A DNA stretch of 38,831 nucleotides, taken from positions 1-38,831 of IMG/VR virus record IMGVR_UViG_3300049844_000167; one strand, given 5' to 3'. The notes under the pieces were generated by a model that did no database searches, was not told where the DNA came from, and worked only from the letters and a program-made list of their open reading frames with translations. This stretch comes from a virus (taxonomy: Duplodnaviria; Caudoviricetes). This document shows positions 1-37,952 of the stretch, one piece after another. The position numbers and the translations under genes are program-made. Position 1 is the first letter of the stretch. Each line of letters starts with the position of its first letter.

Positions 1-39
1 GTTGGTCGCGGGCTTAATGTCTCAAATCAAACAAACCCA

Positions 40-978
40 ATGAAGAAACCTACTCTCTACCCGGTTCCAAACGAACCTGGAAACTTCATTCTGAAGATTT
101 CCAACAGTTCCTTGGAACTTCTCACGACTTGTCCTCGTGCTGGATCACACTACCTCATTCAGCGTCGACGCCTCGTATCAACGTCTGCCGCTTTGCTTTA
201 CGGCGGCGCGGTTCACGCAGGTCTCGTGCCGCGGAAACTTCGCGTCCCCAACTGGGAAGCCGAGCAAGCCAAAGCGGTGGAACAATCCTACGACGGTAAA
301 GCCTTTCCGCCGGACGACTGGAGAACACCCGACCGTTGCATAGCGATGTTGCAAGGATACAACCGAGCCTACCCAATTGACGGTGAACCTTTCACCGTCC
401 TTCCGGAGTCGGTTGAGTCCAAGTTCGAGGTTCGCATTGGTACTGTTGACTTCTGCGATGTCCTCGAAACTGCCGACGGTCCCCTTCACGTCAACCGTCT
501 TGACATCCACTACACCGGACGTATTGACGCCATCGTGTCTTGGGACGGTACCAACTTCATCATGGATCACAAGACCACCAGCGTCCTCGGCCCGACGTTT
601 TGGGATGACTTCCAACTCTCGGCACAAATGATCGGCTATGTCTGGGCAGCAAGGCAACTTGGCTATGACGTCAAAGGACTTCTCCTCGACGTCATTGCTG
701 GGCGGAAGCCAACCAGGACTGGCACCTCCGCGGAATACCTTCGTCAACGCTACTGGTATCCTGAGGAGCACGTCGAAGAATGGCTCAAGGACGTGTTCAC
801 CCAAATCCAAGACTGGCTTGAGAAATGGTCGAACCGGTACTTCCCAAAATGCACCAAATGGTGCATTGGTAAATACGGACGCTGTCAGTACTTCGACGTG
901 TGCACACAGAAAACCACCGACGAACGTACCGCCATGCTTTCGTCGGAAGCCTACGAGGACGTTGTTGAACATGACTAA
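40..978 (+). CDS. Cas4-like / PD-(D/E)XK exonuclease with Fe-S cysteines
   Basis: N-terminal TCPR Cys, GRIDA...IMDHKT nuclease motifs, QMIGY (QxxxY) motif, C-terminal CTKWC..RCQYFDVC cluster. Confidence 0.85.
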   Translation: MKKPTLYPVPNEPGNFILKISNSSLELLTTCPRAGSHYLIQRRRLVSTSAALLYGGAVHAGLVPRKLRVPNWEAEQAKAVEQSYDGKAFPPDDWRTPDRCIAMLQGYNRAYPIDGEPFTVLPESVESKFEVRIGTVDFCDVLETADGPLHVNRLDIHYTGRIDAIVSWDGTNFIMDHKTTSVLGPTFWDDFQLSAQMIGYVWAARQLGYDVKGLLLDVIAGRKPTRTGTSAEYLRQRYWYPEEHVEEWLKDVFTQIQDWLEKWSNRYFPKCTKWCIGKYGRCQYFDVCTQKTTDERTAMLSSEAYEDVVEHD

Positions 979-1172: not shown

Positions 1173-1874
1173 ATGAAAAGCGCACAAGAATACAAACCAA
1201 ACCAAAGTCGGGGCATCCTGCTCCTCGGTCAGCCAGGCTCTGGCAAAACCACACTCGCCCTTCAACTTGGACGAAAACCCTGGATCGCAGACTGCGACAA
1301 CAATCTGTCCGGAGCCTTTCGTCACCTTGGAGCGAATTGTCACGCCATGTACGACATCATTGACCTCGATGACGAGTTAAAGCCCATTGCGGAAAACCTC
1401 CGCTTCACCAACCTCACTCGAAAGGTCGCGGATGCGTGCAAGTCGGACTGTGACACCCTGATCTTCGACTCCTACTCAAAGGTTTCGGACTACGTCCAAG
1501 ACGACATCCTGCGCCAGCAGGGACGTACGCAATTCCAAATGCAAGACTGGGGCACTTACCTCAACGTGATGAAGAAGCTCACTAACCAAATGCGTTCGAC
1601 TCAACGGATGTTTGTGGCTACAGCCCACGTGCGTCCCGAGAAGGACGAAGTCTCTGGCATCGTTCGCTACTTCATCGCGTTGCCTGGGCAAATCCAGCAC
1701 CAACTTGGCGCACTCTTCTCTGACGTCTGGCTTTGTGAGTGCCAAGAGAAAAACGGCCAGCATCAATTCGTCGTTCGCACCATGCCAAACACGTGGTACG
1801 CGCTCAAAAACAGCTTGGGCCTCAAGCCCGTCTGTACCGTTCCTGAGATCCTCACCGCTCTCGGTTATGCGTAA
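1173..1874 (+). CDS. Sak4-like AAA_24 P-loop ATPase (phage recombinase)
   Basis: Walker A GQPGSGKTT, Walker B LIFDSYS, QDWG and TAH motifs, FSDVW; lies between an exonuclease and an SSB-like gene. Confidence 0.82.
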   Translation: MKSAQEYKPNQSRGILLLGQPGSGKTTLALQLGRKPWIADCDNNLSGAFRHLGANCHAMYDIIDLDDELKPIAENLRFTNLTRKVADACKSDCDTLIFDSYSKVSDYVQDDILRQQGRTQFQMQDWGTYLNVMKKLTNQMRSTQRMFVATAHVRPEKDEVSGIVRYFIALPGQIQHQLGALFSDVWLCECQEKNGQHQFVVRTMPNTWYALKNSLGLKPVCTVPEILTALGYA

Positions 1875-2037: not shown

Positions 2038-2179
2038 TCCTGTCTCACTGCAAACCACAACCGAAGACATTGCCGATGCGTGTGAGTCCGCTGGACTCCT
2101 CGTCTCGTCAGTGAAACCTTGGAGCAGACCAACCTCTGCCCCAATGGGCATAACGCCCGCACAGGGTGGTGCACTGTAA
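1994..2179 (+). CDS. Small hypothetical protein (61 aa)
   Basis: ATG at 1994 preceded by AAGGAA; ORF fills the gap before the SSB-like gene. Confidence 0.55.
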   Translation: MTATFLVEVEVDGIDPVSLQTTTEDIADACESAGLLVSSVKPWSRPTSAPMGITPAQGGAL

Positions 2180-2216
2180 CCTAACGCACCAAGTAGCGAA
2201 ACAAGAACCAAAACAA

Positions 2217-2684
2217 ATGGAAAACAATAACGAACAACTCGTCAACGAAATCATCGACCTTGGTTACAACGTGGAAGATGTCGATCTGTCTCGTCCGGTG
2301 CTCGCCGCCGGAACCTACCCCTTCACCGTTGTCGGTGTCGCGGCGGAGCAGTCGAAGTCCAACCCGCAAAACCGGAACCTCAAAGTCACCTTCGCCCTCG
2401 CCGCCGTTGCAGAGGCGACGAATGGCAAGTTGGTGAATCCGGGATTCCGCCTGACGATGTATATGCCCCTCCAGGACGTCGGCAAGATGCAGCCCGGTCA
2501 GTGGAAGGAGCGTCCCGCGCAGTTGCACAATGGCCTCGGCCTCACCGGAGCCATTTCGACTGGCGAGTGGACTGGCAAGACCGTCAACTGCACCGTGAAG
2601 GTCACGCCTTCTCGCACAGATGACGCTTCGGGTCGAACCTATCCCGAAGGCAATGAGATCACTCGGTTCTCTCAGGTCAAGTAA
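2217..2684 (+). CDS. DUF669-like putative single-stranded DNA-binding protein
   Basis: PVLAAGTYPFTV...SKS..NLKVTF pattern, GKTVNCTVKV and YPEGNEITRF C-terminus typical of DUF669 OB-fold proteins found beside Sak4; ATG 2217 after an A-rich leader. Confidence 0.7.
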   Translation: MENNNEQLVNEIIDLGYNVEDVDLSRPVLAAGTYPFTVVGVAAEQSKSNPQNRNLKVTFALAAVAEATNGKLVNPGFRLTMYMPLQDVGKMQPGQWKERPAQLHNGLGLTGAISTGEWTGKTVNCTVKVTPSRTDDASGRTYPEGNEITRFSQVK

Positions 2685-2746: not shown

Positions 2747-3514
2747 ATGACAACACTATCTCTAGATCAACTTCGGACAATCGTCCCCGCAGCCTTCGCC
2801 ACCGAACCTCGTTCGGATGTGTCTGACCGTTACGACTTCATTCCCACGCTAGACGCTATCAACTACGCAATGAATCGTGGTTGGTTTCCTGTTCGCGCTC
2901 GACAGTCTGTGGCAGCGCAAGACCAGATTCACGCAAAACACAGCATTATGTTCCGTGCCGAGGCGTCTAAACTCATCGTGGGCGACATCTTCCCGGAACT
3001 GACGCTCATCAACAGTCACGATAGAACACGTTCCCTCGTGTTCCGTGCTGGTCTGTTCCGCCTCGCGTGCTCTAACGGAATGTCCGTGGCGATCTCCGGA
3101 ATGTCGTATAGCGCAACCCGCGTTCACCTCCGCGGCGGCAACCCATTGCCGAACTTGTTCAATCACGCACTGGATCAACTTGAGCCGGTGACTGAAGCCG
3201 CAAGGTCCTGGCAGACGCGAATCTTGTCAGCCGAAGAAACAACAACGTTGGCTAAGAAGGCCGTGCTGATTCGCTGCAACGGGAACAAGCTCTCCGCTTC
3301 TTACCACAACCACAACGAATACCTAATTCGTCGGCGAGGGGACGACGAACGGTCAGACTTGTGGACAGTCTACAACGTCCTGCAAGAAAACTCCATCCGC
3401 GGTGGTATCCAAGGCCCAGTCCGCGCCCTTCGCGGAATCAACACCGTCGAAGAAATCACACGGATCAATCAAGAACTCTGGACCGCAGCGGAAGAAATCT
3501 ATGGAAACAATTAA
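2747..3514 (+). CDS. DUF932/DUF945 family protein
   Basis: VSDRYDFIPT..GWFPV, KHSIMFR, PELTLINSHD, AGLFRLACSNG, DLWTVYNVLQENSIRGG, INQELW motifs. Confidence 0.85.
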   Translation: MTTLSLDQLRTIVPAAFATEPRSDVSDRYDFIPTLDAINYAMNRGWFPVRARQSVAAQDQIHAKHSIMFRAEASKLIVGDIFPELTLINSHDRTRSLVFRAGLFRLACSNGMSVAISGMSYSATRVHLRGGNPLPNLFNHALDQLEPVTEAARSWQTRILSAEETTTLAKKAVLIRCNGNKLSASYHNHNEYLIRRRGDDERSDLWTVYNVLQENSIRGGIQGPVRALRGINTVEEITRINQELWTAAEEIYGNN

Positions 3515-4883
3515 ACTCACACAAATCAACATCGGGGATCGTCTCCGGGAAGACTACGGAGATGTCGAAGGACTGGCGGAGTCCATTTATGAACTCGGTC
3601 TAATCCAGCCTATAGTGCTTCGGCGTGACTCTGAGTCCGCCTTCACGCTAGTAGCTGGAGGTCGACGTCTCACTGCTATCACCTCCCTCGGTATCACCGA
3701 ACTCCAGCATGGAATCACCTCTGTGCCTGGAGTTGCGGGTTTTGTTTACGCCGACGAACTCCCGGAGGATCGCCTCCGGGAGTTGGAGCTGGAGGAAAAC
3801 GTGCGCCGCAAGGACATGTCCTGGCAGGAACGAGTCCTTGCCATCGACGAAATCCATCGGCTCAAAAGTCGTCGGGCCGCTCTCGACTCAACGTCGTGGG
3901 GGTTAAAGCAAACCGGCGAACTTCTCGGGGTCACGATGGGACACACGTCGTGGATTCTCCAGATAGCCAAAGAACTTCGTGCGGGTTCTGCGATTAAAGA
4001 CTGCGAGCATTTGACCGCAGCCATCCGGTGGCTGATCCAGCAACGCGAAGACGAAGCGAAAGCAGAACTTGTCCGGATAAGTCAAGAGTCGCTTGCGAGA
4101 CAAATCTCCTCCGCTTCCGCCTCTCCGGTCAAGTTGGATAATGCAACAAAACCAGCCGAGCCTTCTGCCTCTCCTGGTTTTGCTCTCGCCAATCAAGTCT
4201 GCTTCAACCACGACTGTCGAGGTTTCCTGGCCAAATGCGCTCCCGAGCAATACGACCACATCGTCTCCGATCCTCCCTACGCAATCGACATGGACATGCT
4301 TGCTCAAACTCAAGCCTTGTCCACCATCGACTCCGTTCGGGAGACGCACGACGTCGAACAGAACAAGGAACTCCTCTGGACCATCATGCCGGACTTGTTC
4401 CGCGTACTCAAACCAAAAGGCTTCTGTGTCTTGTGGTTCGACAGCGTTCACTGGTCATGGCTCACAGCCCGAGCCGAGGAAGTTGGTTTCCGCGTCCAGC
4501 GTTGGCCGTTAGTCTGGTGCAAAACCTCTCCTTGTGCTAACGCAGCTGCGTTTTCCAACTTCACCAAAGCGACAGAGATGGCTTTGGTCTTGTCGAAACA
4601 AAGCGCGACGTTGGTCAAGCCAATCACCACCAACTGGATCACGGCTTCCAACTCCGAAGCTCGAACGGCGGGCCATCCGTTTTGGAAGCCTGCAGAAGTC
4701 TGGAACTTCATCTTCTCCGCAATAGCGACTCCTGGACAATCAGTCCTCGACCCCTTCGCGGGAGCTGGTTCCTCGACCACCGCCGCCATCAAGTTCGGAC
4801 TCGTCCCGACTGCCGTGGAGATTGACGTCAAACACTACAACAACCTCCTCCTCAACGTGCAAAAAGCATATGACAACGCCTGA
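3501..4883 (+). CDS. ParB/Srx-like N-terminal domain fused to a beta-class amino (N6-A/N4-C) DNA methyltransferase
   Basis: LAESIYELGLIQPIV, LVAGGRRL, ELEENVRRKDM (ParB); catalytic SDPPY precedes SAM-binding VLDPFAGAGS, with HPFWKP; start trimmed to ATG 3501. Confidence 0.88.
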   Translation: METIKLTQINIGDRLREDYGDVEGLAESIYELGLIQPIVLRRDSESAFTLVAGGRRLTAITSLGITELQHGITSVPGVAGFVYADELPEDRLRELELEENVRRKDMSWQERVLAIDEIHRLKSRRAALDSTSWGLKQTGELLGVTMGHTSWILQIAKELRAGSAIKDCEHLTAAIRWLIQQREDEAKAELVRISQESLARQISSASASPVKLDNATKPAEPSASPGFALANQVCFNHDCRGFLAKCAPEQYDHIVSDPPYAIDMDMLAQTQALSTIDSVRETHDVEQNKELLWTIMPDLFRVLKPKGFCVLWFDSVHWSWLTARAEEVGFRVQRWPLVWCKTSPCANAAAFSNFTKATEMALVLSKQSATLVKPITTNWITASNSEARTAGHPFWKPAEVWNFIFSAIATPGQSVLDPFAGAGSSTTAAIKFGLVPTAVEIDVKHYNNLLLNVQKAYDNA

Positions 4884-5079: not shown

Positions 5080-5257
5080 TGGTTACGAGGTTCACCTTGA
5101 CCTCGCGACTCATGACCCAACCTCAATCTACTGTTACCGAGGGAATCGTCCAAATCCGCGCCGCGTATTCTGGGACGACCTTTCCGAACAACTCCAAGAC
5201 CGCATCAACAACAAAATAGCAAACCTACCAAGAGATGGAAAATCAAATTGTACCTAA
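5045..5257 (+). CDS. Small hypothetical protein (70 aa)
   Basis: ATG after an A-rich leader; bridges to the polymerase gene. Confidence 0.55.
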   Translation: MKKIVYVMWDGDGYEVHLDLATHDPTSIYCYRGNRPNPRRVFWDDLSEQLQDRINNKIANLPRDGKSNCT

Positions 5258-7832
5258 CTGTTTCCCTACTGTGGAAACCTCCTATCGCCTTGCCATTATC
5301 GGTGAGGCTCCCGGAGCCGAAGAAGTCGTCGCCCGCACTCCCTTCGTGGGAGCTGCCGGACGTCTCCTCTCCGCGCTTCTCTCCCGCTGTGGTATCATGC
5401 GCTCCGCGTGTTTCGTGGGGAACATCTGCCAACATCGTCCCATGAACAACGACATTTCAACTTTCGAGTGGGGCGGTGAAGAAATACAATCGGGGCTGGA
5501 ACGCTTAAAAGCTGACCTTGAAACGTTCCGCCCGACGTGCATATTGCTCCTAGGAGCCACGGCTCTCCGGGCCTTTACTGGTGAGCACCGAAGTATCGAA
5601 GATTGGCGCGGGTCTGTCTTCGCCGCGGCGGAGATTAGTCCTGGAACTAAATGCATCGCTTCCTATCGCCCGGCTGATTGTTTGCGGATGTCTGAGCTAA
5701 CTCCCCTGCTAAACTTCGACCTCCGTCGTGCTCGGTCGGATGCGGACTTCCCTGATCTTCGTCTCCCCGAACGGAGCTTTGAGTTATCCTTGTCCGCCGA
5801 CGAGATCATCGCTCGTCTCGATGCCATCGAACCGAACACTCTCGTCTCCTTCGACATCGAAGGTGGGCTAGACTCCTTGTCCTGCTTGTCCATCTCCACC
5901 GACCCCGGGTCAGGCTTCATCATACCCTTCGAAGCCTCCGTCGGCACGTCAAAGTGGGACATTGACACAGAGGTGAGAATCTGGGCCGCCGTGAAAAAGT
6001 TAATGGAACGGAGCGACGTGCCTAAGGTTCTCCAAAACTCATTGTATGATTGCTTCGTCTTGGGTTATAGTTACGGCATACACGTGTCTAATGTAGCCGA
6101 AGACACCATGCTCAAACATTGGGAACTCTATTGCGAACTGCCCAAATCCCTCGGTCTTCAAGCCTCTCTTTACACCCGCGAACCCTACTACAAAAGCGAA
6201 CGCAAAGCTGACACGTTGCAACGCTTCTGGACGTATTGCTGCAAGGACAGTGCGATTACTCTTGAAATCTGTCAGAAACTCGATGGAGCGTTAACAGCTC
6301 CAGCGAAGTCCCACTACCGTTTCAACGTAAACATGCTCAGGCCTTTGCTCTACACGGAGTTGAGGGGCATCTCTTACGACGAAGCTGCCGCATCTGACCT
6401 GCGGGAAAAGACCAAACGAGAGATGTACCTGCTCCAGCACCGCCTTAACAAGCACGCTGGCTGTGAGCTTTCAGTCCAAAGCGAAACGGAGGTTCTCGCT
6501 TTGTTCAAAGAGATTGGCTGCCAGAAGCGGTTGAAAGACGCTTGCACAACGGTCATGCTTATGCCACAGTGTGCCCTAAAGCCCTACATCTACGCGGCTC
6601 GACGTCTCCAGGTTTTATGTCAGTCCGGCTTCCCCTTCGACGACGCAAGGAACGGTGAAGCGGCGGTGTTGTTGAACCACCATCTCAACGTTGACAGTAA
6701 CAAACAGATGTGCGACTTCCTCTACCGGAAGCTTGCGCTGCCGGTACAGTACAAACCACGAACGACGTCGCCCACAGCTGACGTCCTCGCCATGCTTCGT
6801 TTGTATAAGAAAACCGACAACCCAATCTGTAAGCTTGTCTTGCAAGTCCGTGCGCTGGCCACCGCTATGGAAACTCTCGCCATCAAAGCTGACGAGGATC
6901 ACCGAGTCCGTTGTGGTTACAACGTTGTCGGGACTGTGACAGGTCGTCTGACGTGTTACAAATCTCCCACCGGCTCCGGATATAATCTCCAAACCGTCAC
7001 CAAGAAACAACGCCACTTGTTCAAGGCCGACCCTGACATGTGGATGTTTCAATGTGACTTGTCTGGTGCTGATGGCTGGACTGTCGCGGCTCATTGCCAA
7101 CGCCTCGGCGATCCAACCATGATGGACGATTACTTGTTCGGTCTCAAACCGGCCAATATCATCGCCCTGATGTACGAAGGGATGAAAGTCAACGGGATGT
7201 CGCGTGAACAGCTCAAAGTCGAGGGCAAGAAAGTCGACAAAGACGGCTGGCTGTACTTTGCCTGCAAGCGCGTTCAGCACGGCTCCAACTATGGTATGGG
7301 GAAAATTACTATGTCTGACGTGATTCTAAAAGACTCCTACAAATACCTCGGAGAGCCGACGGTGGTTCCTTCGTCGACGTGTGAGCAGCTTCAACGTCTC
7401 TACTACATGCGTTACCCTGGCGTACTCGCTTGGCATCGTTGGATGGTGCAACAGCTCAAAGCCACTCGTTCCTTGACCAGCGGTTCGGGCCATACGCACC
7501 ACTTCTTTGGTCGCTCGGACGATCACGATACACTCAAATCCGCCCTTGCGGATGAACCACAGCAGAACACCACCTACGCGACAAACCGCGCAATCTTAAA
7601 CCTATGGCTTGATCCAGAAAACCGGAGTGGCTCCCGTCTAATCGTGGAACCTCTCCACCAAGTCCACGATGCCCTCATCGGACAATTCCCGAAGAAGCGT
7701 ACCGACTGGGCTGTGGAGAAAATCCGTGGCTGGTTCAACGAACCATTAACAATAGCCGGACAATCTCTCGTCATACCTTTCGAGGGAAACTACGGCGACT
7801 CTTGGGGAAATCTCAATGTCGGAACAATTTGA
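5235..7832 (+). CDS. polA: Family A DNA polymerase with N-terminal family-4 uracil-DNA-glycosylase-like domain and 3'-5' exonuclease domain
   Basis: UDG motifs IGEAPGAEE, PFVGAAG; ExoI FDIEG, ExoII QNSLYD, ExoIII YCCKD; TGRL..NLQ; motif A DLSGAD, motif B KRVQHGSNYG, motif C QVHDA. Confidence 0.92.
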   Translation: MENQIVPNCFPTVETSYRLAIIGEAPGAEEVVARTPFVGAAGRLLSALLSRCGIMRSACFVGNICQHRPMNNDISTFEWGGEEIQSGLERLKADLETFRPTCILLLGATALRAFTGEHRSIEDWRGSVFAAAEISPGTKCIASYRPADCLRMSELTPLLNFDLRRARSDADFPDLRLPERSFELSLSADEIIARLDAIEPNTLVSFDIEGGLDSLSCLSISTDPGSGFIIPFEASVGTSKWDIDTEVRIWAAVKKLMERSDVPKVLQNSLYDCFVLGYSYGIHVSNVAEDTMLKHWELYCELPKSLGLQASLYTREPYYKSERKADTLQRFWTYCCKDSAITLEICQKLDGALTAPAKSHYRFNVNMLRPLLYTELRGISYDEAAASDLREKTKREMYLLQHRLNKHAGCELSVQSETEVLALFKEIGCQKRLKDACTTVMLMPQCALKPYIYAARRLQVLCQSGFPFDDARNGEAAVLLNHHLNVDSNKQMCDFLYRKLALPVQYKPRTTSPTADVLAMLRLYKKTDNPICKLVLQVRALATAMETLAIKADEDHRVRCGYNVVGTVTGRLTCYKSPTGSGYNLQTVTKKQRHLFKADPDMWMFQCDLSGADGWTVAAHCQRLGDPTMMDDYLFGLKPANIIALMYEGMKVNGMSREQLKVEGKKVDKDGWLYFACKRVQHGSNYGMGKITMSDVILKDSYKYLGEPTVVPSSTCEQLQRLYYMRYPGVLAWHRWMVQQLKATRSLTSGSGHTHHFFGRSDDHDTLKSALADEPQQNTTYATNRAILNLWLDPENRSGSRLIVEPLHQVHDALIGQFPKKRTDWAVEKIRGWFNEPLTIAGQSLVIPFEGNYGDSWGNLNVGTI

Positions 7833-8067
7833 AGAACTAGAAAACACACCAGAAATCATCGAATGTTTGGAGATGCTTCGCAGCACTCTTCATACCTACT
7901 ACACCTTTTTCGGAATCTATCCCAAAGTTGCGTTTTGCTCACAAGAGTACTTTCGCTGCTTCCCTGTGATGGATCTGGAAAACCCTTGCTTAACCGTCAA
8001 CGAAATAGACATCATTCCCAACCCTAACTTAAAAGGAAAAACAATCTACATAAGGCATCTACTATGA
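7816..8067 (+). CDS. Hypothetical protein (83 aa)
   Basis: Overlaps the pol end; ATGA-coupled to the next gene. Confidence 0.55.
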   Translation: MSEQFEELENTPEIIECLEMLRSTLHTYYTFFGIYPKVAFCSQEYFRCFPVMDLENPCLTVNEIDIIPNPNLKGKTIYIRHLL

Positions 8068-8330
8068 GTATCGAAAATACACTTAAAGCCCGGGGCAAGA
8101 CCCACGGGAACTTTATCGACAATTCCAACGTGACTCAACATCTAAAACGAGTTATACGCTGCTCGAAGAACTGGGACACCATGGGCAACGTCAATCGCGA
8201 AGCCCTCGACATGATCTGTCACAAAATCGGTCGCATCTGTTCGGGCAATCCGTCCGAGGTTGACCACTGGCAGGACATCGCAGGCTACGCAACACTCGCC
8301 AAGCAAGGCATAACCGGAGACCTGAACTAA
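8064..8330 (+). CDS. DUF6378-like small all-alpha protein (putative nucleotide-handling)
   Basis: L..RG.THG.F N-terminus, MICHKIGRI..G, DHWQDIAGYA C-terminal motif. Confidence 0.75.
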   Translation: MSIENTLKARGKTHGNFIDNSNVTQHLKRVIRCSKNWDTMGNVNREALDMICHKIGRICSGNPSEVDHWQDIAGYATLAKQGITGDLN

Positions 8331-9193
8331 TGCCAACCCGACCAATGTTAGCCGCGCTGGTACGAGACATCGACTTGCTCTCGTACCCACTCGTCGCCAC
8401 ACCAAAGATCGACGGAATCCGGTGTTTCATCCACGAAAGCCTCGGCCCCGTTTCTCGCACCTTCAAACCCATCCCCAACGATTGGATTCGAGGACAGTTG
8501 TCGGGTTTGCCTCCGGGTCTCGATGGAGAACTCATCGTGCCAGACGCAGACTTCAACGACACGCAGAGCGCAGTCATGTCCTACGATGGCATCCCTGAGT
8601 TCAAGTACCTCGTCTTCGACTATTGTCCCTCCGGCTGGGACTTTTTGGCCCACGTTCAACGTATGTCTATGATCCCAGCCGGACTCCCCGAATGGGTTGA
8701 GGTGCTTCGTGGACTCACGGTTCGGGATAGCCTCGAACTCACCGATTACGAAACCTCCTGTCTCGAAGGGAACTTCGAGGGCGTCTGTCTACGTGACCCG
8801 CTCGGCCATTACAAATCTGGCCGCGGAACCGTCCGCGACCGCACCCTCATGAAACTAAAAAGGTTCCACGACTCCGAGGCCACCATCCTCGGGTTCGTAG
8901 AACTCCAACACAATCAGAACGAGGCCGTAGTCTCCGAACTTGGCCTTCTAAAACGCTCCAAGCAATCGGCCAACCTTACCCTCGGTCAAATGCTTGGCGC
9001 ACTGAAAGTCCGCGACGTCGTCTCCGGCGTCGAGTTTGAGATTGGCTCCGGTTTCACTACTGCCGAACGAATCGACATCTGGAACAATCGGTCCATGTTT
9101 CTCAATCGAATCCTAACCTACAAATACCAACTCTACGGCATGAAAGACAAGCCTCGTTGCCCTGTCTTCAAAGCCTTCCGCTACGACGTATGA
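8330..9193 (+). CDS. lig: Minimal ATP-dependent DNA ligase (Chlorella-virus-like, with latch region)
   Basis: Motif I PKIDGIR, LDGEL, VFD, EGVCLR, KLKRF, FEIGSGFT, KPRCPVF. Confidence 0.93.
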   Translation: MPTRPMLAALVRDIDLLSYPLVATPKIDGIRCFIHESLGPVSRTFKPIPNDWIRGQLSGLPPGLDGELIVPDADFNDTQSAVMSYDGIPEFKYLVFDYCPSGWDFLAHVQRMSMIPAGLPEWVEVLRGLTVRDSLELTDYETSCLEGNFEGVCLRDPLGHYKSGRGTVRDRTLMKLKRFHDSEATILGFVELQHNQNEAVVSELGLLKRSKQSANLTLGQMLGALKVRDVVSGVEFEIGSGFTTAERIDIWNNRSMFLNRILTYKYQLYGMKDKPRCPVFKAFRYDV

Positions 9194-10422
9194 ACTTCTT
9201 TGCAAACTACATGAAATACTGTGAGGGTTGCGAGACCCCGGAAATCTACGATCTCTGGTCGTCTCTCGCCACCATGTCCTCGATTGTGTCGAGAAGAGTC
9301 TGGGTCAACCAAGGCTACTTCCGCATCTACCCGAATTTATACGTCGTCCTCGTCGGACCTCCGGGCGGGCGTAAAACCACCGCTATGAACGTCTGCAAGG
9401 ATATGTTGACGGAACTCAAGACCATCAACTTCGCCGCGACGTGTATGACCAAAGAAGCCATGTGCAAATACATGGTTCAGTCTTGCATCAAGACGTTCAC
9501 CATCCCCGACTCCGGACAGATCAAAGAATACACCCCGATCACGATGTGTCTCACCGAGCTATCGCACTTCCTTGGTGCGAACTCGGCTCACATGATCGAC
9601 TTCCTCACAACAATCTATGACCAAGAGTTCTACGACGCCAAGACGAAAAACAAAGGAGACGATATTATCCCGGCTCCGTACCTTACGATCTTGGCTTGCA
9701 CTACTCCGTCCAACATCACACGGTATCTCAAGGAAGACGTTATATCGGGCGGCTTTAGTCGCAGGACTTTATTTGCCTACGAGACCGACGATGGTGAGCC
9801 GATACCGTATCCTGAAGTTACTCCCGAAGCACAAGCAGCATGGGACTCCTGTGTTGCCTATGCTCGTAGTCTCGAAGGAATCTGCGGAGAGTTCACGTGG
9901 GACCCAAAGGCCAAAGACTGGTATGGAAAGTGGTACTGTGACTTCCACAATTCCCTCAAGAACCACCACGAACAGCTGACCCGAGGTTATTTGAAGTCGA
10001 AGCACGTTCAACTGCTGAAAATCTCAATGTTGGTCGCACTTGCCGAAGAACACGTCCTCGTCTTGAAACGCGACCACCTTGAAATAGCACTTGACATGCT
10101 CAACCGTTTAGAGAAAAACCTGCACAAAGTCTACGAGGGCATGGGTCGCAACGAACTCAACGCAATCTCCGCCCGTCTCATCGAGCTTCTGGAGACAGCA
10201 AAACGACCACTCCCTGAAAAGGAAGTGGTCGGTATGCTTTACCGAGACGCGGATACGGCGGAAATCTACAGTCTCCTAAACCATCTCCACAGCGTCGGAA
10301 GAATTGTCCGGCTCGAACAACGAGCTAAGGACGGCTCTTTCACTCGTAAAGTTGTGACAACACCGGAGATAGCCGACCGCGAGTTCCCCGGTTGGAGAGC
10401 AAGTCTGCCGCCTCCCACCTAG
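9190..10422 (+). CDS. DUF3987/YfjI-like P-loop ATPase, putative replicative helicase
   Basis: YPNLYVVLVGPPGGRKTTAM Walker A, variant Walker B MCLTEL, ILACTT sensor, GGFSRR arginine finger; ATGA-coupled to the ligase (start 9190). Confidence 0.75.
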   Translation: MNFFANYMKYCEGCETPEIYDLWSSLATMSSIVSRRVWVNQGYFRIYPNLYVVLVGPPGGRKTTAMNVCKDMLTELKTINFAATCMTKEAMCKYMVQSCIKTFTIPDSGQIKEYTPITMCLTELSHFLGANSAHMIDFLTTIYDQEFYDAKTKNKGDDIIPAPYLTILACTTPSNITRYLKEDVISGGFSRRTLFAYETDDGEPIPYPEVTPEAQAAWDSCVAYARSLEGICGEFTWDPKAKDWYGKWYCDFHNSLKNHHEQLTRGYLKSKHVQLLKISMLVALAEEHVLVLKRDHLEIALDMLNRLEKNLHKVYEGMGRNELNAISARLIELLETAKRPLPEKEVVGMLYRDADTAEIYSLLNHLHSVGRIVRLEQRAKDGSFTRKVVTTPEIADREFPGWRASLPPPT

Positions 10423-13400
10423 ACATAGTCGGATCGCTTTCAACCAGCGAATCTATTTGTGCAGCCCGCCGCACAGAGGTCATGGATGGTCCCAGTGTGG
10501 GAACTCCTAACCTTTGTGCTGCGGCTGCATGGAGTTGTTTTCTTGCAAGACTCGTGGATTGCATCGGAGTTTGTGGCACTCCAAACAATTCGTCAATCCG
10601 CCCCTGCGTCGGCCCCGCCGCGCGGCTCCCCAACTCTCTCGGGTCTGGTGGCAGAGTCAACTGCCCCAACCTGTTCGCCACACTTTTCATCAAGTCCCTC
10701 GGATCATTGCCGCTTTGCACTTCTTTGCGGAACAATCTGGCAGCGTCAGAGTCCTGTCCCGCCTGCAACTTGCGAGCAATGTCCGTTGTCCTTCGGCGTT
10801 TAGCCTCCAGTGCCGCCGTCTCTGCCTGTGCCGACAGCCTAGCATAATCCTGCCAACGGCTGACTCGGCTTGGCGTGAATCCGACAACCCTTCCAAGTTG
10901 CTCGGCCACACTCAAATCCGTTGCTAACAAGTCTCTCGTATTCGGGTTGATGAATACATTCCCTTGTTCCAACGCTTGAGCCATCCGTGCTACGCCCCGA
11001 GGCATGACCAACTCTACCGCTTTCTGTGGGTCGAGGTTTGCCGTCTCCTTCGTCGCTTTGATGACGTTGTTCACAAGGCTTGCCGAAGGTCCGATAAAGT
11101 TCGACCAATCAATTCCATTATACGGTGAGATGCCCAAGGTCGTCGAGAGGGACAATCTGGCACCCATGTCCGGAGCGTTGGACAACACCGACGGAAGACC
11201 TTTTGCCAAGGCTTGTCCAAGGAAACCTCCCAACTCCTCGTCATCTCCAAGCACCTGCGACAACACTTCTCTCACCGCGAGTTCCGGGTTAGACCCAGGA
11301 AACAACTTCTGAAAGGCTGCCATCGCTGGTGCGAGGAATGGCATCCCTAACGCTCCGGCTAAGGCCATTTGCGTCATCACCATCTGCATCATCGCCTTTC
11401 GGTGTTGCACGATTTGCGCTGGCGTCAGGCCACTACCCGGCAACGACTTTCTGATTAAATGCCCCATCAGGGTCATCATGCTCGTCGAGTAGGTCTGGAG
11501 GCTGAACCCCGTCTGTGCCATAGCTCTCGGCAAAGCGTGGAACATTCCCACAGGCCTGTTGTACTTTCCTCCGCCAAACATAGAGTGATCTTTGACGAAC
11601 TTGGATTCGCGATACGCGTCCTCGACCGAAAGTCCGCGTTTCCGAAACTCCTTATAAGCCGCGATGAACGCAACCTCTGAGTTATACGTGGGAATCTTGC
11701 TGTAAAACTTCCTGGCCGCAGCAAACAGCCCTACCAGCTTATTCTTAGCGATGTCAAATGCGTTCAAGGGTCGCATCCCGCCACGACTCCGCATGAAATT
11801 CACCGTTGAGTAAGACTCCAAGAAGTCTAACTCCGCATAAATCCCGGCGTCAACGACACCCTCCTCACGTGCTCGCTCCATTACAACTTTCAATTCTCCG
11901 ACGTAGTTACCTCGCAGCGCCGCGGACAAAGCCTCCTTATTCGCGTCAGCTATCATGCCATACGACTTCGCGGCTTTTCCAAACTTCAACGTCAAGACTG
12001 GAGCCAAGGAGGTCAACTGTTGAAACGGCTCTACAATCATGTTGCTCAAATTATACGCCATGAAGTAAGCAAAGTTCATGGACGAAATTGAACGACCAAT
12101 CTGCGAGTCTGGTTTCAAGACATTTTGCACGTGCCTTTTCGCGTATGTCTTCAAGTTCGCCTGAATATCAAAGGCGGGGTGGGCCAACGCAATCTCGGAC
12201 TCCATCTTCACGTGTCTGTTCTTAATCGCATGGATGACGTTGTTCATATGTTCCTGTTGCACAAAGAACATATCCAACATCTCCCTGCTTTTCGCGTGGC
12301 GACGTTTGACTGGCGTAAGCACACTCTGCGCCGCGATTGCTTCTTCAAGTGAAGTTGTATAATCCAAAGAAACCGCCATCTCGCCTCCCTTTTCCTCGCC
12401 GTATTTATTCACCAACCTTTCTTTTAGTCGCTTTGTCTGCGCGTCAAAAAACTCGAACACGCGCATGTCTCTCGTAACCCCCGCCGACGACTCGTTCGGG
12501 TTGATGTTTCGCACAACCTTCAACCGTTTTTCCTTCACGCCAAGTTCACGATCCTTGGCCGTTTTCCAATAGAAACTCTGCGTCTTGCCCTTATCATCCG
12601 TATAGATCACTCCATACGAACCTTGCCGACGTTCCGTCATGAAGTATCCCGCGCGGCCAGTTAGAATCTTTCCTAAGTCTTGTGCCTTAGCAAAGTTCAA
12701 CAAGAGCTGATTCGCCACGTCAGAGAAGGCCTCGTAGTACTCCGGCTTCCCAGGCACGTCCGGAGGCAAATACGCCCACGCTTCGTCGAAAAACCTTTGT
12801 GCGCGATCCGAGTGTTCTTTCCTATTAAACGCATCACTCTTAGCAAGTTCGTTATAATCGAAATACTTGCGAAGCGCCTTCGTGAAGGCTCGTGCCTGAT
12901 CGACATTCAGCACACGATCATTCACAATTTCCAGAACAGCCACCTGACTGAAATGTTCAAACGCGGCGTTGGTCATAATGTCCGCCATGTACCGCATTTG
13001 GTTCTTCGTTCCATTGTAAACTGCTTCCGCAGCTTCTCTTTCGTTCGCGTTAAGCTTATGCTTGTTGTAGTACGTCTCCCTTACATTCGCGTCAAAACCA
13101 TTCCACTGGGTCACTTGCTTCACTCGTTCCGTCGCGGGATCGTGCTCAACTTTAAACTGTTTGTCATCCCCTTCAAGTTGTTGTGCCAAGGCCATTTCGG
13201 AGAAACAATCCCGAATCTTCTGACTCTTAGCGACCATTTCCCATTGCCTTGTGGTCTTGGTTTCAACAAACCCAGTGCCAGTTGAAGCCTCCAGACCAAC
13301 GCCGGCGGTGAACAGTTTACTAACCTGAGCCTTAGCCAAGTGATCCGCGCTGGACAATGCATCATACAACGGCCTTAGTTCAGGATATTGTGCCGCGGTC

Positions 13401-16400
13401 ATTACGAACGGTGCAATGTTCTTGAGCCACCAACTCAACTGCTTCATTGCTTCCGGTGACTCTGGACTTCCGACTCCGGACACCGGTGCTAACGTATCTG
13501 CTTTCGCCGCAGCGTAGTTTTCAACATCCTCCGGACGCATCTGACCAGCTCCGACAGACTTCACAACCGCCTGAGCGTTTTCTTGCAACACGTCCGGACG
13601 GAGTTTCGCAATCGTGTACGTCGCCGCGATCTCCTGTTCCCTTTTTAAAACGTGCTGCGCGGTCTGACGAAAGAACTTGTACGTAGGTAATACCTTCGCC
13701 GCTAACTCTTCAAAGCCAGCAGACTTCAAATAGCCTTGCACTCCTAGCCAAGCACTCGCCTGTCGGGTCTTATGCAGCGCAATCAAAGCTCTGGTTGGAT
13801 CATCAAGTTCCAACGAATCCAAGGCTTTGTCAATGAACTTTGTCACAGCCGCCGGAGACTCCATCGCAAAATCCAACGAAACTAAAAACTCGTGCACGTC
13901 GCTGGCAGCATACTTAGGAGTGCTTGTGGCTACATTGAACTTTTCATGAGCAAACTTAGTAAGAGCTTCTGTTCGCGCGACTCGTTGCTCTGGCGTAAGT
14001 TTTTGATAATAACCAACAACCTCATTGAGCAAAGACGCGATCCGCGGGTCTTTGAGAAACGCTTTGGTGATGTCCTCTGCTAGTTTAGTCTCAACAGCAT
14101 GGGCGCTTTCATGTCTTGTTGTAACGCCGAACTCAACAGCATCTTCTGCCGTGTAGTTAATCCCAACCGTATCATCATTCGGGTTGTAATAACCTACCGC
14201 ACTTTCGTCTTTTGTCGGATGCCACAAAACGTTTCGACCAGCTCCGTGAACCATCTCCATGATTGCCGGTGCCATAGCGTCGGCAAACTCCCGATTGAAG
14301 CCCAGCTGTAAGTAATAACCTTTAATGGTATTGAACTGCGACTGTGCTTCTAGCCCAACGCGGTTCACAGGTAACATCCTCACATCCCTCTCGGTGACCT
14401 TTTCCAACGAACCCTTTACCATCCAGTACATGTTCCCTTCGCGGTGCAGCTTCGCACCAAGCACCGGCCTCCAAAGCGTCCCGAACGCCTCAGCATCAAT
14501 CGGAGTTAGATAGATTCGATCCCCGTTCTCAACCTGCTGTCTCGTTGTCGCTTGCATCGCATCCGTAACTCTTGTCAACAACGGCCTTTCGTCGCGGGAC
14601 ATGGCCCAGTTTTGTCCGTCGGCATCCCCGCGAGTCTCCGATGTTTTCCACTGTTCAAACAGCGGCGCGTTCTTGATAGGCTCGTACGATTTCAACGACT
14701 CCTCAGCAAGTTTAAGCTCAACCTCAACACGATCCCTCGCGGCGTTGATCTGCTTCTCCAGCAACTCTCGACCTTTTGCTCCACTCACCTTCGTCCACTG
14801 TTCATACAAAAGCGTCAGCTTCTCCGACGCTTCTTGGTACGCCTTCATAGACGTCCTCCGCCACTCTGACAGCTCCTCAAACGCTTCAGATTTAGCGACG
14901 AGTCCAGCCAACGTTTTATCGTGCATGGCGACCTGGGTAGAGAACTCAAGCAACTCACGCTCCGTATCTGTCAACCTAACAACCAAATCAAGCTGACGTT
15001 CGTCTTTCGCCCTTGCCAACTGCGTTGTTAATCTTTCCCGTTCAGCGAGCAGTTCCACAATTCTCGCCTCGCAATTCTTCGTGACGCTTTCATGCAAGTG
15101 GAATACTTCCATCAAATCCAATGGTTTCTGCGGTTCCCATTTCTGTAACCTCTCCCGGACATACCTCATGGCTTCGGCTTCACTCACCGCACCTTCTCCA
15201 CTTTCGTCAAACGCCCTCGCTGTAATCGTCCCTTCCTCTGGAGTGTATTCAACCGGAACTGTGCGCCTATTCGAAATCTGTGATGCCCAGGTTTTAACGA
15301 TGGCTTGTTCTGTCGCAGACAGCTCCTCCATCTTCAACGGAGCTGGGTGATTCACCATCTTGTATTCGTTAATCGCCTTGGTGATCGAGCTGATTTTAGA
15401 CTCATCCGGTTTCGGATTCTCGATACCGAGTAGATGCGGCACCAGCAACTTCTTCGCCTCGCCTGCGTCCTTCGCACCGCGAGCAAGAGCCAAGTCACTA
15501 TACGCTTCTCGCGGAACTTGCACCCCAATAGCTTCAAGCTGTTTCAAGGTTCTTTCGTATCCTGCAAAGAACTCCTCCGCCTTACTTTCCTTACCTTTTC
15601 CGAGGGACAAGCTTTGCAGTTGCTTCCTAACAAGATTCAAGGACTCGACAGCAAGTTTCATGTCTACTTGCTTTTCGAGTGGCACTGATCGCACCCGATC
15701 CAGTATCTTTTTCATCAACGCCTGCTGTTCGACAGGCAGCGAAGCTGTGGCCAACGGCGCATGAGAGCCTTTGCCCGCAGTCGGCAACCACGAACCATTC
15801 AACACCATCGCTTCTGCCGTTATCGCATCCACCGGAGTCGTCATTCTACCCTGACTTGCGGGATTCTCTTGTTCTGGAATCTTACCTCCAGTCGGTCCAA
15901 CACGCTCGACCAAGTCAGGCCGAGCCTTTTGTGCCCTTGGACCAAAAATCAACCCTCTAGGCGCAGTTGCTTGTGCGTCTTGCACGTGTAGCTGAACGGC
16001 AAACTCCTCGACAAGTTGTTTCGCCTTCGCGTTCTTCTCGGGAGCCTCGAACACACTACGAGTCAACCCCCTCTCGACAAACCACGAATCTGGGTTCTTT
16101 TTAATCTCCCTCAACGCGTTCGCACGATAAACCGCACGATCGGCCTCGACCACTCCAGTCCACGTCTTAAAGACTGGCGCATCCTCCAACAACCGATAAA
16201 GGTCATCCCTCACCATGAAGCCTTTTCCCGCCCGCAGTTGCGTCTGGATTCCAGGACTTCCTGGCAGCCACCTACCCTCCTTGTTCTGTTTCCACGGAGC
16301 GTAGCCACCCTGGGCCTCGTATTGAGTGACGGACATTGCTCTCACCACAGCCTGACGTGCTCTATCTAGCACGTTTTCTGCCATCGCGGGACTTCCGAAC

Positions 16401-19400
16401 AGCTTCGAAAACATTCGATGGAAAACAGCGAACACGCGACCCAGCAACGTCCCGTCGTCATACTTATTCTTGTAGTTAGGTGACGGCAGCTTAGTGGGAT
16501 CAATCACCAAATCCTTCATGTAGGAAATCAGCTTTGGGTCGCGAAGCACACCCTGCATGAACTCGATGGGAGATGACAGACTGTGCAAATACTCCCTCCC
16601 GATCACTCGATTCCCTGCGTCATCGTACCCGTACGAATCTGACACGTACTTATGCAAACGTGTCACCTCTCCGCGAATCTCATCGTCATGCAAGAATCCA
16701 AACACTTGATTCATGTGCAAAACTTCGTGATGCAGATCGTCGAGAATCTTCTCAGGAGACTTGAAACGAAACCACCTGTCTCCGGGAATATGCTCAAAAG
16801 GACTCATCATGATTCCGGGAGAACCGGAGCCATCCTCATACCAATAGAACAACGCACCCACCGTTGGATCTTTCGCTTGCGCCACACCAACACGACAATT
16901 CATGCCACGTTGGAGAAGTACCTGCAACTCTTTTAGCTTTTGTTTGTTTTCAGCCGTCGCCATGTTCGGCAAGTCGGCCAAGTCCTCCAGCCCACCTAAG
17001 AGTTGCTTCGTATCCACGTAACCGCGTTCCTTGAACGTCTTTTTCAACATCCCATACAAGCCGGACAAACCAGACGTATTCTTGACAACCGTCTGCTTGC
17101 CGTTAGTATCTTCGACCGTGTATTCGGTGACCTTCGACACCGTCGTCTTGACCCTATCCAGCACCTCGTCCGGGAACGCTGGATCAAAACGATCGGCCCA
17201 ATCCACCGTGTGACCGATTTCCGCAAAGTCCAACAGACCCTGTGGCATGGTCTTACGCAACCTCAACCCTGGCTTTCGCTCTTTCAAATACGGCGACTGG
17301 ATGCCCCGAACCACATAATCCGCCACCGCCAATGCAGCTTCGATGACATTCGCACGACCGCCGAAGAAATTACGCTTCGTCAAGGCCACAGGCTGCACGC
17401 CAAGCAACTCCGCCAGCTTCCGTGCTTGTGGAACATAATCAGCCATGAACCCCTCGACACCCTCTGACCTCAACGCTCCGCCCTTTTTCGCCAGTTTCAC
17501 CTGTTCCGGCGTGGCTTTTCCTTGATTAACCAACTCGACCAAATCGACGTCTTTCTCGCGTCTAAACGAGATAACCGACGGCAAGCCATCCGATAAAGCA
17601 AAGGAAAGTACCTTTTTGACTTTTTCTCGCAAGTCAACGCGAAGTTTGGGACCGAAACTATTAGACGAAACTCCTGGAAACGCAGTTTCGATTGCAGTCT
17701 TAATCTGAGCGTCAGTCAACATATCCACCCCAACTCGGAGGGACTGCATCAGATGTTCGTGCAACGCAAGACGAACGGACAGCTCCGGACTGGCGTTAAT
17801 TCTCCTATAAGCGTTTTGAAGTAGATTAGTCGTTTGGCGAATGTCAATACCCGACTCCGAAGAAACTCCCTCTGCGGTTTCATAAGCTTGAGCTTCTTCA
17901 CCTTCTCCAGCTTCCCTAGCCGCTTCGACATCCTCCGCAGTCTCACTCTCATACTGCTTTTTCAACAACTCTTTGACGACAGTTTCACGCTCTTCTGCGT
18001 CCATCGAATCGAATCGCATGTAACGTACCTTGCGAATTTTCCACTGTCCTTTGTCTCTCTCCGCTATCAGCGGCTCACCGGCGTATGTTTTGTCCTTCTT
18101 CAGCACTTCTTGGGCCGCAATTTCAACCTCAGCTTTAGACGCTCCGACAAGAGTGTTACCGTTCTCGTCCGTAACATAATCCGAACTAAGCTTCTGTGAG
18201 TACGCCTTAAGCATAGCTCGTTTAGCCGCGCCTCGCACCTTAGCCTCGAAAGCCCGGACAGACTTAGAATCTTCCCAGTTAATCGGTTGGCTGTAGTCCA
18301 AAATCGCTTGGTCGATGGCACGAGAGACTTCAACATCAACTTGGAAAGCCTTAGAACCGTCAGGATCGGACTCCGTTGTTTCGTCCAATCCAAGCTTCTC
18401 CATTGTTTCAAGCGTGGTATCTTCGTCCAACCGTTTCTCTACCAACCCCAGCTGACGCTCCAACTCCGTTTTCTTCGTGACCAACTCGGGAGTTTGCTCC
18501 CGCGTGTCCATGTCATCAAGCAACTTAACGAGAGTCTCAGCCGACTGTTGTAACGCCTCTCTTTCGGCCCGAACTTCATCAATCGTACGTCCTTTCTTGG
18601 TTTTAAGATGACGTCCGACTAACCTGTCAAAAAAGCTTAGCGTCCGCACGTCACGCTGACCCGACTGCAAGATTGTAGTTGTTTCTGTCTCCGTGTCAAA
18701 GTGAGTTTTCGGAAGACCTGCATCAGCTTTGTCAACGTCAGTCCCGAAGATGTGTGCCACACGCTTAACAAACTCAGGATCATCTTTCATCCGTTTTACT
18801 GCAGAGGCATCAGCTTCACGTTCCGCGAATCTCCGTTTCGAACCTTCAATCTCAGCCCAAAAGTGTTCACTAGAACGCTCATTCCAACTGTCGGTTTTAG
18901 CTCGAATGACATTCTTTGCAGAATCCAGTGACATGTCCTGAGCCAACACCTGCAGATACTCAACAAGACCACTCGCGGCGTCGTTCTGTTCTTTCTTGTC
19001 CTTGAACTTCCCGCCAAGTGTCTCCTCTGCCCATTCCAGTAACACCGTCCTCGGAACTTTCTGATCCCGAAACTCGACGGTCGACGTTTCAAACGTTCTC
19101 TTGAAGATGTCTTGCAGACTTCCGAAATCGTCGCGAGCAAACGCGACGTTATCAGCAATGCTCCCCGCGAGTTCGGCGGGTTTCTGCGGCATACCCCCAG
19201 CCCAAGCAGCCTCAAACTCGCGTTGAACGTGTGCCTGATCAAACCGCATACCAGGAATACGAGTCTCCAACTCAGCCAACTGATGCTTCAAGACACGTTC
19301 AGTCGCTCGTTTTGTCGTCTTATGCTGCCACTTGGGATTCAGCTTCCGTCCCTCCGCCACATCAAACGCGACAAAAGGCACATTCATCACAACCTGCGCG

Positions 19401-36571: not shown

Positions 36572-36763
36572 GGCTTGATAACAACCCGTTTGCGGGAGGA
36601 ACGAACGGCGACAACCGCCGCCTTTCCCGTGGTGCTCTTTTGACTCTGTTTCTTATCTGATTCCACGCTATCAGCCTAGCCGCGCAAGGCGCGGAAGGCA
36701 ACCTCAATCTTAAGATTCTTTTGTAGCTCTAAGACCCCGTTTCTTCGATGCTAAGACTGGCTT

Positions 36764-36823
36764 TGCTCCATTGTTCAATGCTCCATTGTTCAATGCTCAA
36801 TCCCTCAATGCTCTAATGCTCAG
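36764..36823. repeat. Degenerate 15-bp tandem repeat
   Basis: TGCTCCATTGTTCAA x2, then TGCTCAATCCCTCAA, TGCTCTAA, TGCTCAG. Confidence 0.85.
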
Positions 36824-37082
36824 ATTTCTTTCGCTCACCAAGCAAATATATCTTACGGCGCACGCCTTCCAAGGGAAAGGATACCCCCTTTAGGATACGT
36901 CAGAATTGAGAAAGGTGTTTATAGCAGAAACGAGAGAAACGTCTTAGGTTTGCCGTTACCGTTTCTCGGGAATGACATAGGCGAAAAAGCGATTCTAGGC
37001 GGGCGGGAAAGAGTAGGAAGGGAAAGAGGGTAGCGCGATTGCTTCCCTTGGGATTCCCTTTCGTTTGATAACAGAAAGACTA

Positions 37083-37589
37083 ATGATGAAAAAACTGATG
37101 GAATATATCGGTGATCTCACCAAGGCTGGCGACGCGAGGCACGCCAACAGCGCGTATACAGTGGTAGCGGACCTTGACAAGCTTCCGAAAGAACTTGTCG
37201 AGCCTTTGTTGGCGCTTGGCACGCTTCGGGCGTTACAGTCGCACGGTGTTAGCTCTGACGCTGACAAGGCGTCAGGCTTCCCGAATGGTAAAGGCGCCTG
37301 CGCAACAGAAGCGCAAGTTGCAGCTTGGCTCAGTGCGGTTAAAGAGGCTATGCCACCCGGCATCACGGTGACAGCGAGCGTGGACGCCAAATCAACGGAA
37401 GCGAGACAGGCCACCGCGAAAGCTGTGGAAGCCGGCAAGTCTGAGGCTGTTGCCTTGGCAAAAGCTGCAGCGAGGGCGGGGCTGCTGGTGGCCATGGCAG
37501 GGCAACCGTTGCCTGTCGTTGTGGCAGCGCTGGCGGGTGCGGGGTGCGATCCTTTGACGCCCCAAGAAATGGAAAGCTGGGGCACCTAG
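37083..37589 (+). CDS. Ala-rich hypothetical early protein (about 168 aa)
   Basis: Stand-alone ORF with ACAGAAAG leader, followed by a terminator on the + strand. Confidence 0.7.
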   Translation: MMKKLMEYIGDLTKAGDARHANSAYTVVADLDKLPKELVEPLLALGTLRALQSHGVSSDADKASGFPNGKGACATEAQVAAWLSAVKEAMPPGITVTASVDAKSTEARQATAKAVEAGKSEAVALAKAAARAGLLVAMAGQPLPVVVAALAGAGCDPLTPQEMESWGT

Positions 37590-37606
37590 AACACTTGCGA
37601 CGGATT

Positions 37607-37636
37607 GAGGGTAGCGGGAAACCGCTACCCTCTTTT
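37607..37636 (+). terminator. Rho-independent terminator
   Basis: GAGGGTAGCGG-GAAA-CCGCTACCCTC-TTTT; perfect 11-bp stem with a GNRA loop. Confidence 0.8.
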
Positions 37637-37717
37637 CCGGTTTAGTCTTTTCTAAGAGAGGCTAAACCGGAGAGGTCAATCAATCAATGGGGGAAAGAGC
37701 AATAAGCTTTCCTGCTA

Positions 37718-37952
37718 TGCTCCGTCAATCAATCAATCGGTCAATCATAGCTGATTCTTGAATCATCTATCTTAAGAGCATAAAGGGAAAGAGAGAAAAG
37801 GAAAAGAGCATAGGGGGATAGAGCATATGTCTTTCCCTCATATGTCTTTTTTTTTTTTTTCTAAAAGGTAGGGGTACGATATTCCCCTTCCCTTTTCTCT
37901 CTCCATCATCGCCCAAGAAGCCTGATAGACTGACCGATTGATTGACAGAGCA
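37718..37952. repeat. Nested imperfect inverted repeats around a T14 tract (origin- or terminus-like locus)
   Basis: TGCTCCGTCAATCAATCAATCGGTCA (37718-37743) vs TGACCGATTGATTGACAGAGCA (37931-37952); GAGAGAAAAGG (37791-37801) vs CCTTTTCTCTC (37891-37901); T14 at 37847-37860. Confidence 0.75.

Follow-up and report, generated by a model that had tools for sequence, protein, structure and literature searches.

The replication locus and its record

The window analysed here is the whole of the IMG/VR virus record IMGVR_UViG_3300049844_000167 (38,831 nucleotides; Duplodnaviria; Caudoviricetes), a podovirus-like phage with early and replication genes on the plus strand and structural genes, for an SU10-type capsid and portal, a terminase and a protein of 3287 amino acids (aa), on the minus strand. 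Its replication genes include a family A DNA polymerase (PolA) with an N-terminal uracil-DNA glycosylase (UDG) domain and a stand-alone DUF3987 helicase (Table 1); these two genes are neighbours throughout the relatives. Within the reach of the searches described below, the related genomes encode this polymerase and helicase without a detectable primase.

Although the window is its entire record, it is a fragment: the first open reading frame (ORF) is still open at base 1, completeness is rated at 83%, and contigs from three sequencing runs extend beyond base 38,829. Furthermore, the region that begins at the small terminase gene and runs to that of the exonuclease measures 2.3 kb, compared with 7.1–12.8 kb in 12 of 12 relatives. 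The window misses about 5–10 kb of early genes, a region where a primase could lie. Because of this gap, the initial annotation of a genome lacking both primase and initiator could not be drawn from the window alone; the missing primase was instead shown, within search reach, on complete relatives, and the missing initiator is questioned below.

A search for loci with single proteins found no relatives, and alignment-based searching was needed. The polymerase then returned 1,207 relatives among 7,993 scored candidates, and the helicase matched 25 of 50,697 GenBank phage records. Fifteen of the latter are Pseudomonas phages of the 119X/PaP2/PaMx41 kind; the others are Tiera, P5, EBPR podovirus 3, Mel-JY34, Kuura, VS-ABTNL-3, MD01, vir526 and two spring phages. 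All ten annotated relatives that were compared share the layout of the window, and cultured members infect Pseudomonas, Caulobacter, Vibrio, Aeromonas, Polaromonas and Microcystis.

Table 1. Positions of genes, polymerase pocket residues and the repeat cluster in the window.
Feature	Position	Strand	Remarks
PD-(D/E)xK exonuclease	1..978	+	frame open at contig start; present in 15/15 genomes
Sak4-like single-strand annealing ATPase	1173..1874	+	phrog_124, PF13479; core in all three clades
Putative single-stranded DNA-binding protein (SSB)	2166..2684	+	assigned from position beside Sak4; present in 13/15 genomes
ParB-domain and N6/N4 DNA methyltransferase fusion	3402..4883	+	in 14/15 genomes; not annotated in 119X
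UDG–exonuclease–polymerase (family A), 865 aa	5235..7832	+	Pfam UDG aa 14–153, exonuclease aa 190–350, polymerase aa 476–858
D613, steric-gate position (E. coli E710)	7071..7073	+	codon GAT, motif A DLSGADGW; D in 44/44 aligned proteins
K638 at the D732 position	7146..7148	+	covaries with Y754 in two clades; putative role
Y674 at the R754 position	7254..7256	+	alignment columns
H682 at the F762 position, a hallmark of the larger group	7278..7280	+	44/44 aligned proteins; 10/11 annotated relatives, vir526 the exception
ATP-dependent DNA ligase (accessory)	8330..9193	+	phrog_114; in 9/15 genomes
DUF3987 helicase (SF6, MCM-like), stand-alone, no primase domain	9190..10422	+	PF13148
3287-aa putative ejected virion protein	10340..20203	-	Pfam/PHROG scans, motif search
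Non-coding repeat cluster, candidate origin or packaging site	36749..37961	.	9 ATGCTC copies (five on + followed by four on -), AATC repeats, 39-nt inverted repeat, long T run

A full-length polymerase with His at position 762

The polymerase ORF matches PF00476 and carries a family-4 UDG and an intact 3′–5′ exonuclease ahead of the polymerase domain. Its AlphaFold model has a pLDDT of 93, and the best solved match is the Klenow fragment. Sequence and model together place the enzyme in family A, with a predicted Klenow fold, the catalytic Asp residues of motifs A and C, and residues K678 and Y686 at the positions of K758 and Y766. Pocket positions are numbered here by alignment of the window protein to E. 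coli Pol I, a comparison that bore out the motifs read in the initial annotation: motif A DLSGADGW with E710>D and R712>W, GLKPAN in place of D732-x-H734, Tyr at R754, VHDA, ADEPQQ, and the retained K758 and Y766. The HDA of motif C is not special, since N4 has IHDA. A Glu-to-Asp change at the steric gate relaxes sugar selectivity, and D710 might admit ribonucleotides in this enzyme. The most group-wide change in the pocket, H762, was absent from that earlier reading, as were the UDG and the intact exonuclease.

An alignment of 44 proteins, comprising the window query and 43 of the 119 other relatives listed, shows the exonuclease catalytic residues D207, E209, Y334 and D338 to be invariant or nearly so, and the UDG motifs (GEAPG, N63 and HP) to be conserved. 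The window UDG itself has Arg at position 145 (5667–5669), where 42 of the 44 proteins have the motif-B His; this may reflect a weakened glycosylase or a sequence error. In three relatives (L064, L076 and L078), position 762 is occupied by Trp (KQGIWGTCY). A literature search returned nothing relevant on H762/His762 or E710D/E615D polymerases.

A helicase without a primase domain

The helicase ORF matches both DUF3987 and phrog_14296 and contains Walker A, Walker B and conserved arginine motifs. DUF3987 is described as an MCM-related family of helicase superfamily 6 (SF6), usually fused or adjacent to a primase (PMC4889955), and one member is reported to be a 5′–3′ helicase (PMC11724360). The window protein and the N-terminal half of N4 gp43 are homologues; the primase of gp43 sits in its second half. 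The best 150 of 6,352 helicase relatives are all unfused, at 247–498 aa. Among 3,509 candidates screened for longer forms there was a single match, a distant protein (22% identical) whose helicase part follows a TOPRIM match below threshold; this sequence arrangement indicates that a helicase–primase fusion exists further out in the family. Profile searches of the relatives found no AEP or DnaG primase fused or adjacent to the helicase.

The helicase relatives form 749 clusters at E ≤ 1e-30, not all of which need be primase-less. As phrog_14296 is labelled 'DNA primase', and the stand-alone helicase is so annotated in the GenBank/RefSeq records of 119X, PaMx41, MD01 and vir526, the primase-less state is hidden in these records.

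Primase searches in complete relatives

Toprim_2 was detected in 0/34 plus 0/49 (0/83) related genomes, 27 of which have direct terminal repeats; LUZ24 served as the positive control. PriCT_1 gave no match above cut-off in 72 relatives (0/72) and detected the N4 control. The one faint PriCT_1 match (G012; 11.5 bits) fell in an ORF of 166 aa that has no primase motifs and was taken as chance. The Prim-Pol and DNA_primase_S profiles each matched 0/34 genomes. The AEP-TOTE profile matched none of 55 records, N4 among them, and is therefore uninformative here.

Because Pfam AEP profiles miss the catalytic core of N4's own primase, an N4-type AEP profile was built from 38 AEP regions. Its best match among 59,011 six-frame peptides (266 overlapping sources) had an E-value of 0.3, compared with 1e-139 for the N4 control. 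A Pfam scan of 139 gene-family representatives, drawn from families present in at least 2 of the first 80 loci and excluding singletons, returned no primase. Within the reach of these searches, the primase-less state proposed from the window is supported across the complete relatives.

A primase of unrecognised sequence could be hidden in one of the small early genes, perhaps within the stretch that the window lacks. The failure of Pfam on N4 lends this some weight, as do three families of unknown function near the core in the missing region, present in 11–12 of 12 relatives. Set against this, the three families are confined to the clade of the window and show no more than one conserved acidic column, versus 15 in the AEP control. 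One of them, a 177-aa family (L001:3200–3697, plus strand, and relatives), is predicted to fold into a winged helix and a small α/β domain (best Z 5.9, a common arrangement), and no primase was present among the 50 structure matches listed. For two early families of unknown function, the ESM Atlas offered no usable name, scans against PHROG and PDB sequences yielded chance matches only, and Foldseek gave none at E ≤ 0.001. A hidden primase is on this evidence quite improbable. The predicted fold of the 177-aa protein is that of a possible DNA-binding initiator, origin-binding or regulatory protein, which weakens the claim that an initiator is lacking.

Pocket variation and the absence of primase

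The initial annotation tied the absence of a primase to the altered nucleotide pocket. To compare pockets, 80 loci were fetched for each of three clades, out of 131 (window), 419 (Mel-JY34) and 94 (119X) confirmed. Fetch patterns contained motif A for the first two clades and motif B for the third, so the selection itself partly sets these columns, a bias from which the 44-protein set and the E710 count of the 119X clade are free. The window clade has D710 in 71/71, Y754 in 66/71 and H762 in 68/71 sequences, and the Mel-JY34 clade has D710 in 79/79, R712 in 75/79 and Y734 in 76/79. In the 119X clade, E710 is kept in 65/70, with Y734 in 70/70, N754 in 69/70 and H762 in 70/70.

The polymerases of Kuura (DLEQAESR, DLH) and Desulfofustis phage MD01 (DLSQIENR, DVH) have near-canonical pockets and keep E710, R712, H734 and R754, and yet no primase was detected in either genome. 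The rewired pocket therefore does not explain primase loss: the substitutions and the missing primase are decoupled in the alignment, and the proposed link, already at odds with E710 in the 119X clade, is not supported.

Substitutions at positions 732 and 754 instead appear to be coupled to one another. In the Mel-JY34 clade, K732 occurs only together with Y754 (19/19) and never with R754 (0/54); in the window clade, K/R732 accompanies Y754 in 65/71 sequences. The two sets of pairings fall on separate supported branches of a quick tree, in which N4, vir526, Kuura and MD01 are not firmly placed. From these columns, D732K with R754Y is likely a charge swap that preserves binding of deoxynucleoside triphosphates (dNTPs), with K732 likely replacing the charge of R754. 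The pocket is probably a working dNTP site rebuilt by compensation, and its changes a remodelling rather than the cause of primase loss. In this scheme, H762 would have arisen first, after which H734 and R754 would have been lost in several lineages. By analogy, H762 could take over the phosphate contact of H734. A Tyr at this position makes the phosphate contact in T7 polymerase.

A further proposal is that the His762 polymerase primes itself, either alone or with a partner such as the SSB or helicase. The precedent is CCPol-MP of SCCmec (TV-Pol group), a family A polymerase that acts beside the helicase Cch2 without a classical primase and the only PolA known to have been shown to prime itself (PMC7581432). 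H762 is present in nearly every primase-less relative examined and absent from N4, and the constant adjacency of polymerase and helicase genes also suits a self-priming pair. In contrast with the window enzyme, CCPol is without most of its exonuclease domain and needs MP (PMC10201439), and it works with an SF3 helicase; the window polymerase has a full exonuclease with an invariant proofreading site and a predicted Klenow-like fold. CCPol, moreover, retains both E710 and F762 while priming with dNTPs (PMC7581432), so a relaxed steric gate is not needed for self-priming. E710D is not common to the group, and vir526, which is without H762, also has no detected primase. Self-priming is therefore unlikely. 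If this improbable case nonetheless held, His762 polymerases would be full-length, proofreading replicases that start chains de novo in a two-protein replisome with a bare MCM-like helicase, spread over hundreds of podovirus lineages, and would constitute a new natural primer-independent family A enzyme.

The pocket could alternatively be adapted to a modified nucleotide, with the UDG guarding the modification. UDG-PolAs of the SPO1-like and SP15-like groups, treated in PMC13697223, go with modified thymine, and they share with the window enzyme the UDG–exonuclease–polymerase architecture and conserved UDG motifs. They differ in belonging to larger phages and, for SPO1, in showing only ~20% identity. 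Some relatives of the window carry MazG, NT5C, DUF3310 or dCTP deaminase-like genes, but these are sporadic (few of 80 loci each) and no base-synthesis pathway belongs to the core. As a modified nucleotide would also leave priming unexplained, this is the least probable of the alternatives.

Proposed synthesis from ready-made 3′ ends

The genes that recur in all three clades are only the polymerase, the helicase, the exonuclease, Sak4 and the putative SSB. It is proposed, with a probability of roughly 0.45, that this module copies DNA by strand displacement from 3′ ends made by transcription and recombination. In the first round, a host RNA polymerase transcript would prime at an origin, for which the candidate lies at 36.7–38.0 kb. 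Later rounds would draw on the exonuclease, Sak4 and SSB both for 3′ ends, annealed or invading, and for the re-annealing of displaced strands, while the polymerase and helicase would drive strand displacement and the ligase would seal nicks. Among the starting points listed in the initial annotation, a recombination intermediate or host transcript fits the conserved gene set best. Sak4 and SSB are reported to be required for the replication of staphylococcal phages (PMC5499656), and T4 without its primase is described as still replicating vigorously (PMC3016281).

The strand composition of the window clade is weakly in favour of strand displacement. An orientation-independent GC skew at fourfold-degenerate sites was observed in 12 of 13 genomes of the clade (-0.26 in the window), versus 0.00 in LUZ24, the one primase-bearing control.

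Of the 25 ATGCTC copies in the window, 9 fall within the candidate origin, which covers 3% of the window's length. There they stand in head-to-head order, together with a 15-nt tandem repeat, and the region has the strongest hexamer clustering among the 2-kb windows of the record. It may be an origin; a packaging or regulatory site would fit equally. In many relatives, repeat clustering near the terminase gene ranks among the top three 2-kb windows. These clusters share no word, so they do not represent a conserved origin sequence.

Several points weigh against synthesis from ready-made ends by a compensated polymerase. The mechanism is inferred from the gene set; since N4 carries an exonuclease, Sak4 and SSB alongside a primase, finding these genes does not prove recombination priming. 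In 119X, Tiera, P5 and ctMlz233 the skew lies close to zero; its sign is reversed in G022, and codon use confounds it. A divergent primase could escape profile searches, as the core of N4 escapes those of Pfam, and, with 5–10 kb absent from the window, the primase-less state is shown for its relatives and is putative for its own genome. With regard to the pocket, 6 of 25 Y754 sequences in the Mel-JY34 clade have no K732, and the 732/754 pairing may represent only two independent origins, because kin share residues.

The simplest reading of a missing gene is that the host provides the function. Host DnaG, recruited directly or through the PriA restart primosome, would then prime the lagging strand, and leading-strand synthesis would fall to the helicase and polymerase of the phage. 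The near-zero skew of the 119X clade suits this arrangement. DnaG normally docks on DnaB-type helicases and not on those of SF6, and the hosts of the group span Pseudomonas to Microcystis, both of which count against borrowing. According to PMC4889955, viruses with helicases often borrow host primases, but borrowing is rare (2%) once a virus has its own polymerase. Use of the host primase is doubtful on balance, and it is nevertheless the strongest of the alternatives to priming from ready-made ends.

Relation to known replication systems

The closest described phages are 119X, PaP2 and PaMx41 (Jamesmcgillvirus, Fredfastierviridae), which resemble the window in genome layout and size, in a polymerase gene adjoining a stand-alone DUF3987 helicase gene (23% identity), and in H762. 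Unlike the window, 119X keeps E710 and has no Pfam UDG match and no annotated ParB–methyltransferase; the window clade forms a separate branch with D710, W712, K732 and Y754. With single-gene identities of 22–23%, the window is treated as distant kin of the Fredfastierviridae and not as a member.

N4 encodes the same five gene types (gp39 PolA, gp42 exonuclease, gp43 dns, gp44 Sak4 and gp45 SSB), including the homologous helicase, but differs in that gp43 ends in an AEP/PriCT primase, the polymerase has F762 and a degenerate UDG, and the phage brings RNA polymerases of its own, none of which is seen in the window. The N4-like PolA cluster (#17 of Czernecki 2023) is characterised by Phe at B3 (762) and degenerate UDG residues, where the window has His762 and a conserved UDG. 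That survey leaves other UDG-PolAs unclustered (PMC10201439). A separate PolA survey kept only enzymes with F, L or Y at position 762 (PMC9069017), and so His762 polymerases lie outside it; the same three residues define the PolA grouping of PMC6302109.

The absence of a primase in 119X is itself already known: PMC4889955 states that 98% of polymerase-encoding double-stranded DNA (dsDNA) viruses encode a primase and in 2016 listed 119X as an exception, with no mechanism given in that listing. The initial suggestion of an uncharacterised replication strategy thus does not wholly stand as an observation; on the mechanism in 119X, or on a His762 clade, no paper was found in the open-access literature; the supplements of PMC4889955 and PMC10201439 may list members. 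A one-line exception becomes a broad, tractable group with at least 1,207 polymerase relatives and cultured members. Its natural D710, K732/Y754 and H762 variants offer a ready-made set for the study of how sugar and triphosphate are selected. Whichever explanation proves true, it would show how a dsDNA phage that encodes a polymerase can replicate with no primase of its own.

Genome ends, module exchange and neighbouring genes

Judged by assembly overlaps only, nine relatives close on direct overlaps of 30–127 nt and Kuura on one of 606 nt, and no long perfect palindrome was found in 22 genomes of the group. A relative of 119X is reported to have terminally redundant ends and an episomal state (PMC13348215).

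Three genomes (G001, L110–L112; G012, L098–L100; G032, L107–L109) combine the same replication module with different structural genes, which constitutes module exchange. The polymerase gene is in two pieces with ORFs between them in Kuura (L082:25487–28891), VS-ABTNL-3 (L122:24872–28006) and G012, possibly owing to introns or homing elements. In prokaryote genomes there were only 3 matches in 185,579, all in contigs of metagenome-assembled genomes (L289, L290 and L291) binned as Saccharibacteria or archaea; these are probably stray phage contigs, and they assign no host to the window.

Profile searches of the putative SSB gave no Pfam or PHROG match at E 0.01. The ParB–methyltransferase gene lies just upstream of the polymerase gene in the genomes that carry it and keeps a GGRR motif; a role in replication or partition is possible. 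A sequence motif search of the 3287-aa virion protein found no RNA polymerase or primase motif. This protein contains two HExxH motifs, and its last ~700 aa and N-terminus are common to the relatives, with a variable middle.

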